Assembly (NCBI GenBank): GCA_030426125.1
Contig: JAUHZB010000001.1
Span: 158,583 to 222,582, forward strand
Origin: a bacterium
Lineage (GTDB): Bacteria; Patescibacteriota; Saccharimonadia; Saccharimonadales; AWTP1-31
Length of the DNA: 64,000 nucleotides
Direction of reading: 5' to 3'
Of this stretch, positions 7,247 to 38,592 are shown piece after piece. How positions within the stretch are numbered: the stretch's first letter is position 1; the number at the start of each line of letters is the position of its first letter. The notes under the pieces are model-generated. The model ran no database searches. It was not told where the DNA came from and worked only from the letters and a program-made list of their open reading frames with translations. The position numbers and the translations under genes are program-made.

Positions 7247-8473
7247 ATGTTAAAAAAGCTGTTAAGTAAAAGACTGCACCATCGACATTACTGGCGTAAA
7301 ACTAAGTTTAATGAATTAAATGAAATTTATGTTCTAATGCTAGTGCGCGGATTATCGCTGAGTATGATGGGTTTATTTATCCCAGTCTTTTTGTTTAATA
7401 TTGGCTTTGCTTTAACCAGTATTTTATTAGTAGTAATCTTCTATTTTCTGACCAGAACCTTCGCCGACTATTTAAGTGCTTTTTTAGTGGCAAGGTTCGG
7501 ACCTAAGCACATCTTATTTGTAGGTCAGATAATGTTTATGCTGACATCGGTGTTGTTTTTAACTTTAGAGTCTATGAATTGGCCACTGTGGTTCATTGGG
7601 TTGTTCTGGGGTGTTTCGCAGTCGATGTTCTTTATTGCGTTCGACACCGATTTCTCAAAGATCAAGCACTCCGATCACAGTGGGAAAGAACTTAGCTACA
7701 TTTTAATTATGAGCAAAGTCGGTGCTTTTATTGGGCCAATTCTGGGTGGTTTAGTTGGTCATTTTGTCGGTCCTAGCTTTATTTTTGCATTTTCATCAAT
7801 TGCTATGATACTTGGATTAATTCCGCTGTTTAAGACTCGTGAGCCAACCCACACTAGACAGCATTTAGATTACGCCAGCTTCGATATTTCTAAAGTTTCA
7901 AAAATTGTTCCATCATTCTTGGCGGTTAATATTGAGAACACTATTTCTGTCACTCTGTGGCCGTTATTCCTAGGTGTTTTTGTATTTATTGGCGATTCGG
8001 CGTTTATTAACATTGGAATTATAACTTCGATTGCTACTTTAGTTTCTATAATATCTTCTTATAAAATTGGACAGTTGGTTGACGCTGGTAACGGTAGGTG
8101 GTTGCTAAGGATTAGTAGCGTAGTTAACGCCGTTGTCCACTTTTTAAGGGTTATAACTTCTTCCTATCCGGTAGCTTTAACTATAAATATCCTGCATGAC
8201 ATCTTGGCTATTGGTTTTAGACTGCCTTACTTCAAGGGTTACTATAACGACGTTGATAGTTATCCAGGCCACCGGATTGTAGTTCTGAGTATCATGGAGT
8301 CGCTTGCTAGTTTCACTAAATTGACAGTTTACTGTCTATTGTTTGTTGTGGCTCACTTCGTATCAATCAAGACCACTCTAACCCTTTCCTTTATAATTGC
8401 TGGTGTGGCATCGCTTCTAATAAACACAGAAAATTTTATATCGCTAGATAAAGACGCTAAGAGAGGACACTGA
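7247..8473 (+). CDS. MFS-type transporter (about 12 TM)
   Basis: 408 aa, hydrophobic throughout, with a two-times-six TM layout. Substrate unknown. Confidence 0.65.
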   Translation: MLKKLLSKRLHHRHYWRKTKFNELNEIYVLMLVRGLSLSMMGLFIPVFLFNIGFALTSILLVVIFYFLTRTFADYLSAFLVARFGPKHILFVGQIMFMLTSVLFLTLESMNWPLWFIGLFWGVSQSMFFIAFDTDFSKIKHSDHSGKELSYILIMSKVGAFIGPILGGLVGHFVGPSFIFAFSSIAMILGLIPLFKTREPTHTRQHLDYASFDISKVSKIVPSFLAVNIENTISVTLWPLFLGVFVFIGDSAFINIGIITSIATLVSIISSYKIGQLVDAGNGRWLLRISSVVNAVVHFLRVITSSYPVALTINILHDILAIGFRLPYFKGYYNDVDSYPGHRIVVLSIMESLASFTKLTVYCLLFVVAHFVSIKTTLTLSFIIAGVASLLINTENFISLDKDAKRGH

Positions 8474-15127: not shown

Positions 15128-15203
15128 GATGTAATTGTGACTGTTTCTGATAATGAAATATGGTGGGGGTGGAAGGAATTGAACCTTCGACCAATCGGTT
15201 ATG

Positions 15204-15399
15204 CTTACCACTACAACTTTGGTTGCCCCTTTCGGGTTTGGTGGTCTGGACTGTCTCTTTATCCAATGCTAATTGGATACTTGCCGTTCAGTCTCTACAC
15301 CTTTCCTATACATAGGACTTGGCTCGGGATTACCACGTTTGCACAGAGGCTTCCCCGAATTTGACAAGATATACTTACCGGTTACCCATGTAAGCAGCC
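15204..15399 (-). ncRNA. Compact ribozyme core (IGS, P2 to P9) of the group I intron
   Basis: IGS GGCUG (15399-15395) can pair with exon CGGCU. P2 is CUUACAUGG-GUAA-CCGGUAAG (15394-15374). There is a CCC-GAAA-GGG hairpin (15236-15226) and a P9-like hairpin UAUCCAAU-UAGC-AUUGGAUA. Confidence 0.7.
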
Positions 15400-15400
15400 C

Positions 15401-15430
15401 TGCAACTATATAGCGTATCTAGGATATACT
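15401..15430 (+). promoter_or_regulatory. Candidate promoter for the antisense HNH ORF (leaderless geometry)
   Basis: TATACT at 15425-15430 ends exactly 7 nt before the A of the ATG at 15437. A weak -35, TGCAAC, lies at 15401-15406 (18-nt spacer). There is no SD. Confidence 0.4.
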
Positions 15431-15436
15431 AACAAC

Positions 15437-15853
15437 ATGAATAGTCATTCAATATGTGTAATATGTGACAACAAGCTTAAAGGAAAGCAGCTATTATACT
15501 GTTCAATACAGTGTAAGAATGCTAACCACCAATCATATCCAGCTCAAAAAAAGCGTGGATTAGAACGAAAGCTTAATTTAGTTAAAAAACTTGGCGGGAA
15601 GTGTACTAACTGCGGTTACGCAGATAATCTCGCCGGCCTTGCTTTTCATCACTTAAATAACAAAGCTTTTAAATTGGATGTGCGTTCGTTGTCTAATCGG
15701 AAAGAAGAGTTAATAAACGAAGAAGTAGCAAAGTGTGTATTGCTTTGTCATAACTGCCACGCAGAAACTCATAATCCTGACCTAGACTTAGCTAAATTGT
15801 TAATTGAGCCGACTGCTCTAACCACTGAGCTACACCCCCACGTAACAAAGTAG
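15437..15853 (+). CDS. HNH family (homing) endonuclease, encoded antisense to the intron and tRNA
   Basis: 138 aa. N-terminal Cys4 CVIC...CSIQC. HNH/zinc core CTNCG...LAFHHLNNK...N...LLCHNCHAETHN. Codons 124-138 are the reverse complement of the tRNA 5' exon plus 14 nt of flank. Confidence 0.85.
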   Translation: MNSHSICVICDNKLKGKQLLYCSIQCKNANHQSYPAQKKRGLERKLNLVKKLGGKCTNCGYADNLAGLAFHHLNNKAFKLDVRSLSNRKEELINEEVAKCVLLCHNCHAETHNPDLDLAKLLIEPTALTTELHPHVTK

Positions 15854-15899: not shown

Positions 15900-15929
15900 A
15901 TTATACCAGAAGAGTATGGTTTCACTCAA
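15900..15929 (-). promoter_or_regulatory. Candidate promoter of the intron-containing tRNA
   Basis: On the minus strand: TTGAGT (15929-15924), 18-nt spacer, TATAAT (15905-15900). This would give a leader of about 54 nt before G1 at 15839. Confidence 0.35.
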
Positions 15930-31521: not shown

Positions 31522-31596
31522 TGGTAGCGGGGGCAGGACTCGAACCTGCGACCTTGTGGTTATGAGCCACACGAGCTGCCGCTGCTCTACCCCGCG
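31522..31596 (-). tRNA. Initiator tRNA-fMet (CAU)
   Basis: CGCGGGGTAGAGCAGCGGCAGCTCGTGTGGCTCATAACCACAAGGTCGCAGGTTCGAGTCCTGCCCCCGCTACCA. It has a C1:U72 mismatch and is close to E. coli tRNA-fMet as I recall it. CCA is encoded. Confidence 0.85.
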
Positions 31597-38515: not shown

Positions 38516-38592
38516 GCCGGTGTAGCTCAGTTGGTTAGAGCACAGGACTCATAAGCCTGGGGTCAGTGGTTCAAATCCACTCACCGGCACCA
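38516..38592 (+). tRNA. Elongator tRNA-Met (CAU)
   Basis: GCCGGTGTAGCTCAGTTGGTTAGAGCACAGGACTCATAAGCCTGGGGTCAGTGGTTCAAATCCACTCACCGGCACCA. G1-C72 is paired and the variable loop is GGGUC, as in E. coli elongator tRNA-Met (by recall). There is one A31:G39 mismatch. Confidence 0.85.

Follow-up and report, generated by a model that had tools for sequence, protein, structure and literature searches.

The 64,000-nt window analysed here, a stretch of a Saccharimonadales genome (assembly GCA_030426125.1, contig JAUHZB010000001.1), contains a tRNA(CAU) gene interrupted by a group I intron and, within this intron, an open reading frame (ORF) for a small HNH endonuclease. The ORF is located on the plus strand, while both the ribozyme and the tRNA are encoded on the minus strand. 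This arrangement raises the question of how a nuclease gene came to be antisense to the intron that carries it, and whether the two travel together. The locus is likely to represent a composite mobile element, namely a group I intron with an antisense HNH homing-endonuclease cassette in the apical loop of its P1 helix.

The split tRNA(CAU) gene and its group I intron

With introns allowed, ARAGORN identified a split tRNA(CAU) gene on the minus strand (window positions 15161-15839), with a 603-nt intron after position 33. As also seen by direct reading, the 5' exon (15807..15839, minus strand; tRNA positions 1-33) ends at U33, and the 3' exon (15161..15203, minus strand) extends from the anticodon CAU to an encoded CCA. 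The intron between tRNA positions 33 and 34 (15204..15806, minus strand; Rfam and ARAGORN) has G15204 as its last base. These boundaries, GGCT/...G/CATAACC (slashes mark the splice sites), recur in about 58 other loci. The sequence around the exon junction of an intron-less tRNA(CAU) gene would read ...GAGCAGTCGGCT/CATAACCGATTGG....

The ribozyme core P2-P9 (15223..15413, minus strand) was recognised by the Rfam model Intron_gpI (RF00028) at 73.1 bits (E=1.2e-16; gathering score 50), with the full model covered (positions 1-253). The same core was matched in 13 of 14 related ORF-containing loci, on the strand opposite to the HNH gene, and in the three ORF-less loci tested. The P2 hairpin CUUAC-AUGGGUAACCG-GUAAG (15374..15394, minus strand) could be read from the sequence and covaries across loci; the P9 hairpin (15226..15236, minus strand), with a GAAA tetraloop at 15230-15233, follows from the Rfam alignment.

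An earlier note on this DNA had placed the 5' splice site at 15806/15807 and the guide sequence at 15399-15395, and both positions held. The internal guide sequence GGGCUG (15395..15400, minus strand) was read from the sequence; its GGCUG part (15399-15395) pairs with the exon bases CGGCU (15811-15807), and the splice-site U.G pair is formed by U33 (15807) and G15399. The exon base at -3 and the guide change together: among 115 loci, the combination GCT/GGGC occurs in 93 and ACT/GGGT in 13, with nine exceptions, and these changes correspond to few independent events, essentially two clades. By its sequence and predicted pairing, the intron is a group I intron and a candidate self-splicing element. 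A promoter-like element, TTGAGT-18-TATAAT with TG before it, is located upstream of the tRNA gene and is convergent with the ORF (15900..15929, minus strand; a match to the consensus only).

The acceptor strand GGGGGUG of the split tRNA pairs with CACCCCC. Since the G1-C72 pair is present, this tRNA(CAU) is not the initiator. It is probably tRNA-Ile2; the same intron family and insertion site were labelled Ile2 by tFind (PMC13011429). Two further CAU tRNAs are encoded in the window, one of them with a 1:72 mismatch. To tell Ile2 from Met, the spliced tRNA and another CAU tRNA encoded in the window were compared by BLAST with annotated E. coli genomes; only plasmid tRNA-Asn and tRNA-Thr genes were retrieved, with 79-85% identity.

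The HNH endonuclease gene

The ORF (15437..15853, plus strand) starts with ATG and encodes 138 amino acids. Its antisense position, already recognised in the earlier note, agrees with the minus-strand matches of RF00028 and ARAGORN. The additional claim that it is the only ORF in the intron holds for long, conserved reading frames; further mechanically defined ORFs, 46-75 aa long, overlap with the core of the ribozyme.

The encoded protein has an N-terminal four-cysteine element (C7, C10, C22, C26) and an HNH core comprising C56xxC59, F70-H71-H72, C104-H-N-C107-H108, and H112. Residues C56, C59, H71, H72, N87, N106, C107, H108, and H112 were invariant in 25 homologues, and C104 was conserved in at least 90% of them. 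The PHROG profiles phrog_2255 and phrog_3106, both annotated as HNH endonuclease, matched the ORF at E ~1e-16, and five more annotated HNH PHROGs matched as well. Pfam PF01844, suggested earlier as a check, gave no match at E<=1; Pfam and NCBIfam scans detected no HNH family in the ORF, and a sequence search of the PDB found nothing. The HNH/zinc core noticed from the sequence is therefore assigned on the basis of the PHROG profiles and the invariant motif residues. The protein was modelled by AlphaFold2 with a mean pLDDT of 76. The top Foldseek matches in the PDB were HNH proteins (4H9D, Cap5, T4 endonuclease VII, and the HNH domain of Cas9), all of them non-significant (E=0.3-2; TM ~0.3).

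A total of 195 homologues were found at E<=1e-3, and the ORF shares 65-79% identity across many Saccharibacteria species. The dN/dS values over codons 1-112 range from 0.06 to 0.23, with a median of 0.10. The number of homologues, the purifying selection, and the occurrence of this architecture in about 58 independent genomes place the ORF beyond chance. Judged by these comparisons, it is a real HNH endonuclease gene under purifying selection.

The last 15 codons had been described as the antisense of the tRNA 5' exon and its flank. The coordinates are correct: codon 124 (GAG) spans the splice junction, the antisense of the exon makes up codons 125-134, and the tRNA 5' flank supplies codons 135-138 together with the TAG stop. 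The exon-encoded tail is modelled as disordered (pLDDT <50). Relatives in the other two frames have a TGA spanning the junction or stop after 12 nt of exon (SRLL-stop), and the ORFs of further relatives stop 11-16 nt inside the intron. Because the reading frame closes at or close to the junction in these relatives, the tail was rejected as a selected feature. By this comparison, read-through into the 5' exon is a frame-dependent accident; the frame used in this Saccharibacteria lineage has no stop in the 5' exon antisense, which results in a 15-residue, probably disordered tail ending in the host flank.

An extended P1 helix encloses the gene

Covariation shows pairing of intron nucleotides 1-30 with about 34 nt located directly 5' of the guide sequence, which gives an extended P1 with the ORF in its apical loop. 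The 5' strand of this extension consists of the segments CAAUUA, UUUAGC, and GUCUAGG (15781..15806, minus strand); the 3' strand consists of CCUAGAU, GCUAUA, and UAGUUG (15401..15423, minus strand), directly 5' of the guide. Both strands were defined by a duplex test, shuffled sequences, and compensatory variants across loci. Read on the other strand, 15781..15806 is coding sequence of the ORF (...PDLDLAKLLI).

Since indels between the helices of the P1 extension make a MAFFT alignment unreliable, the pairing was tested by comparison of cognate and non-cognate duplexes in place of alignment-based pair counting. For 25 diverse loci, the duplex energy was -15.0 kcal/mol for cognate versus -8.7 kcal/mol for non-cognate partners, and the cognate partner ranked first to third of 25 in 20 of these loci. 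For the P1 extension in the window, 6 of 500 shuffles reached the observed energy.

The apical loop that follows from these helices comprises 357 nt (15424..15780, minus strand) and includes, in antisense, the -10 box and codons 1 to approximately 115 of the ORF. The earlier placement of the ORF in L1 was supported by the duplex test and covariation; in stricter terms, L1 is here the loop that caps a P1 extension of three segments. In ORF-less relatives (L155, L152, and Acidobacteriota introns), the same helix is capped by a loop of only 3-18 nt. As predicted from these pairings, the HNH gene occupies a peripheral loop and does not disturb the fold of the ribozyme.

The heptamer GCUAAGU (15786..15792, minus strand), with its partner UACGC at 15413-15417, is what we take to be the 5' half of a motif similar to the 11-nt GAAA-tetraloop receptor. 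The exact form of this receptor, CCUAAG...UAUGG, is present in L152, L061, and one ORF-less Acidobacteriota intron.

Candidate promoter of the ORF

The -10-like hexamer TATACT (15425..15430, plus strand) is separated by six nucleotides (AACAAC) from the start codon, whose A is the seventh base downstream. The leaderless geometry without a Shine-Dalgarno (SD) motif, pointed out for this gene in the earlier note, is shared by its relatives: among 48 intact loci, 43 have a TANNNT hexamer at a distance of 5-8 nt before the ATG, the spacer measuring 6 nt in 39, and only six have an SD-like motif. The same geometry had been ascribed to several host genes in the window, and it was indeed present at 19 of 47 long host ORFs versus 9.6% of all ATGs. 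A sigma-70 scan revealed neither a -35/-10 pair nor a -35 box for the ORF, and the promoter call was therefore made from the conserved hexamer and its spacing. The conserved placement of this element suggests a leaderless mRNA.

Distribution and decay of the antisense arrangement

A tRNA intron with an antisense HNH gene was present in about 58 of 70 genome loci from species representatives, which belong to at least eight phylum-level groups. These include Saccharibacteria, Peregrinibacteria, Gracilibacteria, Anaerolineae, Acidobacteriota, and others. A comparison of flanking genes, intended to tell vertical from horizontal descent, revealed no shared neighbours within 1.5 kb in any locus.

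Of the introns in a metagenome sample drawn without regard to the presence of the ORF, 37 lack it, 24 are long, and one retains a decayed remnant. All 24 long introns possess the same HNH gene in the same loop and in antisense orientation. The ORF-less relatives are contiguous introns of 203-350 nt with a complete core. Among the genome loci, the ORF is intact in 48 of 59 and degraded in about 8-10; frameshifted, truncated, or remnant ORFs beside intact ribozymes were recorded in L012, L043, L045, L048, L052, L053, L055, L060, and L078. A survey of relatives for introns with, without, or with a decayed ORF, as proposed in the earlier note, thus recovered all three forms, and this mixture is the pattern expected of the homing-endonuclease life cycle.

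About 48 of 120 metagenome loci were tRNA-fMet-type introns with the exact 19-nt P3-P4 core of the antisense-HNH intron family. No HNH gene was found in the sampled fMet-type metagenome loci.

Origin and mobility of the element

In the composite element that we favour, an autonomous HNH cassette would have colonised the apical loop of a long P1 extension in antisense orientation. Its own -10 promoter would initiate transcription at the A of the ATG and give a leaderless mRNA, so that nuclease production would be independent of the untranslated, tightly folded pre-tRNA. The covarying helix of approximately 25 bp would close the 357-nt loop, and the ribozyme would splice like its ORF-less relatives. 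We infer that the protein would attack tRNA(CAU) genes lacking the intron, nicking or cutting them close to the anticodon loop, and that repair would copy the intron and the gene together. The strong purifying selection and the mostly intact ORFs seem to exceed the needs of a decaying parasite and may leave room for a retained function.

The autonomy of the cassette is evident from copies outside introns, and these also bear on an alternative that we judge unlikely, namely that the HNH cassette moves without the intron. It would then target tRNA gene neighbourhoods at large, or the apical loop that ORF-less introns have on P1, instead of the tRNA gene without an intron, and the intron would be no more than a safe landing site. 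The free-standing copies L036 and L041 share the promoter and start of the intron-borne gene (TATAAT-N6-ATG), and the copies L056 and L057 are flanked by tRNA-Gly on one side and an intact tRNA(CAU) on the other. In phages, the closest homologues likewise stand free; the phage copies L191 and L192 adjoin tRNA genes on the opposite strand. In addition, 47 of 59 loci have the same sequence, CATAAC, on the sense strand at the ORF start as at the beginning of the 3' exon, which resembles the target-site mimicry of I-TevII described in the endonuclease-gene-invasion hypothesis (PMC3984707). Independent movement is, however, at odds with the uniformity of the long introns, all of which have the same gene in the same loop and orientation, which suggests one or few invasions followed by spread as a unit. 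The HNH and ribozyme-core distances are also correlated (Mantel r=0.73, a value reached in 0 of 999 permutations), as expected under joint travel or descent.

Domestication of the gene, in which the protein or an antisense transcript would aid the intron or the host, as a maturase-like factor or a regulator of pre-tRNA(CAU), with homing being secondary, appears to us very improbable. A complete core is preserved in the family's 37 ORF-less introns, and the protein is therefore not generally needed for splicing. Damaged ORFs also coexist with intact ribozymes in the nine loci listed above (L012 to L078), and we know of no HNH maturase. These observations have to be set against the dN/dS of about 0.1, the intact ORF in most genome loci, and its high identity across many Saccharibacteria species, all of which would suit a domesticated gene. 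The same is true of the mRNA, which, as deduced from the sequence, would match about 400 nt of the precursor of an essential tRNA with complete complementarity.

That the ORF is a dead frame or one that arose by chance, or that the region is no single intron but a split tRNA gene whose halves are separated by unrelated DNA, is hardly conceivable despite the missing Pfam HNH match; these readings are contradicted by the homologues, the invariant catalytic and zinc residues, the low dN/dS, the covarying helices that join both sides of the ORF, and the contiguous ORF-less relatives.

Comparison with known introns and endonucleases

The closest known counterparts of the composite element are ORF-less introns at position 33/34 of tRNA-Ile2(CAU) in the Acidobacteriota assemblies GCA_016700075.1 and GCA_016700175.1 (Nakagawa et al., 2026, Table S5; PMC13011429). 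They share with the intron studied here the tRNA type and insertion site, a near-identical P3-P9 core, a nearly identical 3' end (...GTAGTTGGTAAG/CATAA), the place of the guide, and an extended P1. By analogy with these near-identical introns, which Nakagawa et al. classed as IC3, the whole family would belong to this subgroup. The Acidobacteriota introns are only 243-244 nt long and have an 18-nt P1 cap, in contrast to the 357-nt loop with the antisense HNH gene in the window. Locus L061 (Aridibacter) represents the ORF-containing form of the Acidobacteriota intron.

In Patescibacteria, an HNH protein is also encoded by group I introns that interrupt tRNA-Asn(GUU) at position 35/36 (PMC13011429). 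They are similar in their patescibacterial hosts and in having a small HNH gene near the 5' end, and the HNH cores share 44% identity over 63 aa (E=6e-15). The differences concern the subgroup (IA), the tRNA and insertion site, and the HNH domain, which is detectable with PF01844. Moreover, the ORF of the tRNA-Asn(GUU) intron, as read from the Table S3 sequence (PMC13011429), is on the ribozyme strand, whereas here it is on the opposite one.

The cyanobacterial tRNA-fMet intron, in some genomes with a PD-(D/E)XK endonuclease, is inserted at position 33/34 (PMC13011429). It thus occupies the same position of a CAU tRNA, and the exact 19-nt P3-P4 core is common to fMet-type introns. It differs in that its host is the initiator tRNA and its endonuclease is of the PD-(D/E)XK rather than the HNH type. 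The PD-(D/E)XK endonuclease of the Synechocystis tRNA-fMet intron is I-Ssp6803I, and the endonuclease gene of the cyanobacterial intron has the sense orientation.

The earlier note named antisense arrangements only for a few eukaryotic nuclear rDNA introns, and the searchable literature agrees. Antisense homing endonuclease genes are described in PMC3679873 (citing Johansen et al., 2006) for nuclear rDNA group I introns such as Dir.S956-2 of Didymium iridis. In these introns, the endonuclease gene is located in a peripheral helix on the strand opposite to the ribozyme, with P1 among the reported insertion sites, and the hosts are eukaryotic nucleolar rRNA genes with eukaryotic-type expression. 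The locus studied here differs by its Saccharibacteria tRNA host, its HNH enzyme, and a candidate bacterial -10 leaderless promoter. The likeness is one of layout and does not make the locus a member of that group.

SegB of phage T4 is a free-standing homing endonuclease in a phage tRNA gene cluster (PMC2330249). The HNH relatives L191-L206 are likewise free-standing among or adjoining phage tRNA genes, which fits an origin from a tRNA-gene-targeting nuclease. SegB differs in being a GIY-YIG enzyme encoded outside any intron.

Implications

In the searchable literature, which covers few subscription journals, we came across no account of a bacterial group I intron with an endonuclease gene in antisense. 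The words 'antisense', 'opposite', and 'orientation' are absent from a 2014 bacterial review, and the 2026 Pfam-based survey does not include the antisense-HNH intron family (PMC13011429).

Whether the antisense layout is itself functional is a separate matter, and we consider this quite doubtful. The leaderless HNH mRNA would be complementary, over about 400 nt, to the precursor of a tRNA(CAU) that is essential and probably single-copy, with the 5' exon included. In that event, expression of the nuclease and maturation of the tRNA would be linked, in one or both directions, through RNA-RNA pairing or convergent transcription; regulatory coupling by convergent transcription is pure speculation. 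If true, such coupling or a role in splicing would explain why the ORF remains intact, and under strong purifying selection, across Saccharibacteria, unlike most homing endonuclease genes, which decay.

The occurrence of antisense endonuclease genes extends beyond the introns of eukaryotic rDNA, and screens limited to Pfam or to the sense strand will undercount intron-borne nucleases. In the arrangement described here, a single stretch of DNA specifies a structured helix of the ribozyme on one strand and, on the opposite one, coding sequence and a candidate promoter. The protein, with a core of about 123 aa, may be a compact enzyme that cuts or nicks site-specifically, directed against a universally conserved tRNA anticodon-loop sequence. 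A large family distributed across phyla, absent from a recent systematic survey, is thereby added to the mobile tRNA introns.

Split tRNA gene and its group I intron

The default ARAGORN run called no tRNA at the 15161-15839 locus. When long introns were allowed, it identified a minus-strand tRNA(CAU) gene interrupted after position 33 by an intron of 603 nt. Direct reading of the sequence gives a 5' exon at 15839->15807 (GGGGGUGUAGCUCAGUGGUUAGAGCAGUCGGCU), an intron at 15806->15204 with G as its last base, and a 3' exon at 15203->15161 (CAUAACCGAUUGGUCGAAGGUUCAAUUCCUUCCACCCCCACCA), all on the minus strand. Rfam detected a complete group I intron core at 15223-15413 (-), with 73.1 bits against a gathering score of 50.

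The split tRNA(CAU) is not an initiator because it has a G1-C72 pair. Two more CAU tRNAs are encoded in the window. The one at 31522-31596 (-) is initiator-like in its C1:U72 mismatch but has just two G-C pairs at the base of its anticodon stem. For the other, at 38516-38592 (+), the Rfam alignment reveals an A31:G39 mismatch; it is presumably elongator tRNA-Met, judged by its resemblance to known tRNA-Met sequences. ORF-less introns of 243-244 nt with a nearly identical core occur at exactly the same tRNA site as the window intron (PMC13011429, Table S5), and the tRNAs holding them were labelled Ile2(CAU) by tFind (PMC13011429). This makes tRNA-Ile2 the probable identity of the interrupted gene.

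HNH endonuclease gene

The ORF at 15437-15853 on the plus strand starts with ATG and encodes 138 aa. The earlier note had assigned it to the HNH endonucleases and proposed Pfam as a check. The Pfam scan gave no HNH match; the assignment stands through seven PHROG families annotated as HNH endonuclease (best E about 1e-16) and through conserved motifs. Across 25 aligned homologues, two CxxC pairs, F-H-H, C-H-N-C-H, and the final His were invariant or nearly so, and the N-terminal four-Cys element was likewise conserved. A large protein database contained 195 relatives, most of 135-145 aa and 63-79% identical; the named ones were from Saccharibacteria. For 10 locus pairs whose synonymous change was unsaturated, dN/dS was 0.06-0.23 (median 0.10), as calculated over codons 1-112, where the ORF does not overlap structured RNA. 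The AlphaFold2 model had a mean pLDDT of 76, and its best PDB structure matches were HNH proteins, none of them significant. Judged by its sequence, the ORF is a real HNH gene.

Placement of the ORF in the P1 extension

The P2 hairpin is immediately preceded on its 5' side by the guide sequence GGGCUG (15400-15395, -), in which G15399 forms a pair with U33 and 15398-15395 form pairs with exon bases 15808-15811. Where the exon has GGACU in place of CGGCU (Acidobacteriota-type tRNAs), the guide is GGGUUG, a G-C to A-U exchange. Exon and guide were concordant in 93 + 13 loci and discordant in 9, some of which are probably regex mis-picks, and this covariation represents few independent events.

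Three further helices (CAAUUA/UAGUUG, UUUAGC/GCUAUA, and GUCUAGG/CCUAGAU in the window, minus strand) link the first 26 intron bases with the 23 bases upstream of the guide. Compensatory variants were present across loci, such as UUUGGC/GCCAAA, UUGAC/GUCAA, and, in the Anaerolineae locus L047, GACAGUAAGUC/GACUUACUGUC. For each locus, the energy of the duplex between its 5' strand and its own 3' strand was compared with that of every mismatched combination: the mean was -15.0 kcal/mol for cognate versus -8.7 for non-cognate strands, and the true partner ranked first to third in 20 of 25 diverse loci. Only 6 of 500 shuffles reached the -15.4 observed in the window. ORF-less relatives possess the same helices under a short cap, e.g. 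GUCUAC-ACG-UAGAU in the metagenome locus L155. Since covarying helices flank the ORF and are closed by short caps in ORF-less relatives, the ORF resides in the apical loop of an extended P1, as had been proposed from the sequence alone. We consider the observation and this structural interpretation certain. The -10 box of the ORF lies just inside the 3' strand of the extension, and the last ~10 intron-encoded codons (PDLDLAKLLI) are antisense to its 5' strand.

The extension also contains GCUAAG...UACGC (15786-15792 and 15413-15419, -); the exact CCUAAG...UAUGG is present in several relatives (L152, L061, L164, and the ORF-less Acidobacteriota intron GCA_016700075.1). This motif matches the classical 11-nt GAAA-tetraloop receptor. 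L9 of the window intron is a GAAA tetraloop (15230-15233), and its docking onto the P1 extension is possible.

Read-through into the exon

Codon 124 spans the splice junction, codons 125-134 read the exon in antisense, and codons 135-138 plus the stop lie in the flank, which agrees with the claim that the last codons cover the tRNA 5' exon. Across relatives, the end of the ORF is set by the reading frame alone. One frame is closed by a TGA in which two bases come from the intron and the third is the complement of U33 (the Saccharibacteria-type loci L025, L027-L029, and L062 and several from other groups); in the second, the stop comes 12 nt into the exon (...SRLL*). The third, that of the window, has no exon stop and runs 38-98 nt to a different host-flank end in each genome. 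In still other relatives, the stop is found 11-16 nt inside the intron. A single base near intron position 4 distinguishes the main Saccharibacteria clade from its sisters (CAATTAAC versus CAAGTTAAC, CAATTTAAC, and CAACTTAAC). The tail has pLDDT below 50 in the AlphaFold2 model. Because the ORF end depends only on the frame, the conserved IEPTALTTEL is a consequence of tRNA rather than protein conservation.

Expression signals

A TATACT box (15425-15430, +) precedes the ATG by 6 nt. Of 48 intact loci, 43 had a TANNNT hexamer 5-8 nt upstream, the spacer being 6 nt in 39, and just 6 had an SD-like motif. Host genes display the same geometry: TANNNT (often TATAAT) was found 5-8 nt before the first ATG in 19 of 47 long ORFs of the window (e.g. 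at 7247, 10178, 37263, 47376, 49011, and 58286, +; 7174, -) versus 9.6% of all ATGs, and just 11 of the 47 had an SD-like motif. This spacing agrees with the leaderless geometry described in the earlier note, both for the ORF and for host genes. Leaderless initiation seems to be common in this genome and apparently is the usual gene start of the host. No -35 box for the ORF emerged from the promoter scan, which did locate a promoter-like site for the tRNA at 15929-15900 (-). These candidate promoters are on opposite strands, and transcription of the ORF and the tRNA would therefore converge. That the nuclease mRNA and the tRNA precursor might regulate each other is speculative. We infer promoter use from sequence, as we do splicing and the activity and target of the nuclease.

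Comparison with known introns

Group I introns are already known from the anticodon loops of bacterial tRNAs, as is insertion at position 33/34, and HNH homing endonucleases are known too. Just 12 tRNA introns >500 bp were reported in 4,934 complete genomes (Nakagawa et al., 2026; PMC13011429), none of them of the window's family. Endonucleases in that survey were detected with Pfam, which misses the window's HNH protein. The HNH of Patescibacterial tRNA-Asn introns (PMC13011429) has a homologous core (44% over 63 aa), but its gene is on the ribozyme strand, whereas that in the window is on the opposite one. Antisense endonuclease genes are documented in myxomycete nuclear rDNA introns (PMC3679873). 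This layout is not mentioned in the 2014 review of bacterial group I introns (PMC3984707), and no description of it in a bacterial group I intron was found in the literature searched, in line with the rarity stated in the earlier note.

Distribution and mobility

A protein-alignment search of one genome per species yielded 70 loci. About 58 of these share an identical architecture, with tRNA(CAU) on the opposite strand, boundaries GGCT|...G|CATAACC, and introns of about 595-685 nt. Their records name Saccharibacteria, Peregrinibacteria, Gracilibacteria, Moranbacteria, Anaerolineae, Bdellovibrionales, Capsulimonadaceae, Krumholzibacteriia, and Aridibacter. In 13 of the 14 ORF-containing loci tested, a group I core was detected with Rfam opposite the HNH strand. 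The L047 intron (1307 nt) belongs to the same family and carries extra inserted DNA besides the HNH gene, being about 700 nt longer than the others. The Moranbacteria genome locus L049, whose tRNA(CAU) carries an HNH intron, also harbours a second group I intron, ORF-less and 247 nt long (ARAGORN; Rfam 57.4 bits), at position 33/34 of a neighbouring tRNA-Phe gene (1927-2246, -) in the same cluster.

An ORF-blind scan of metagenome contigs for the 19-nt P3-P4 core TGTCAAATTCGGGGAAGCC gave 120 loci (L071-L190). These included 37 ORF-less Ile2-type introns, 24 long introns, all 24 with this HNH gene in antisense orientation, one decayed ORF remnant (L078), and about 48 tRNA-fMet-type introns, which interrupt initiator-type tRNAs at 33/34 (3' exon CATAACCC...) and none of which contained this HNH gene; the remainder was left unclassified. 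The exact core common to the tRNA-fMet and tRNA-Ile2 introns makes them close relatives. Among genome loci, about 8-10 truncated or frameshifted ORFs were found next to intact cores. The survey of relatives suggested earlier thus recovered the ORF as present, absent, and decayed.

Free-standing genomic HNH copies outside any tRNA (L036, L041) keep the same TATAAT-N6-ATG start, and in L056 and L057 copies are flanked by tRNA-Gly and an intact tRNA(CAU); L056 apparently has two tandem HNH-like genes at such a site. The closest phage-contig relatives (L191, 2001-2411; L192, 2001-2437; 57% and 50% identity) are also free-standing, with 3' ends that adjoin or overlap that of an oppositely oriented tRNA gene. 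The L192 gene has a normal GGAGG ribosome-binding site. More distant homologues, at about 40%, occur in phage tRNA clusters beside tRNA-Asn. The free-standing genomic and phage copies fit the 'endonuclease-gene invasion' route (reviewed in PMC3984707).

Read in the sense of the tRNA, the ORF start (15431-15439, +) is CATAAC and thereby identical to the opening six bases of the 3' exon (CATAACCGATTGG). This was seen in 47 of 59 related loci, and the match reaches 8-10 bases in some (L020: CATAACCGAT); the free-standing copies L036 and L041 have it too. Possibly it is a trace of target-site mimicry left when the intron was first invaded.

An independently mobile HNH cassette, as the free-standing copies might be read, is unlikely, and domestication of the HNH gene, set beside the degraded ORFs, is more improbable still. 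Distances of the HNH gene and the ribozyme core are correlated (Mantel r=0.73), which suggests joint descent or movement of the two.
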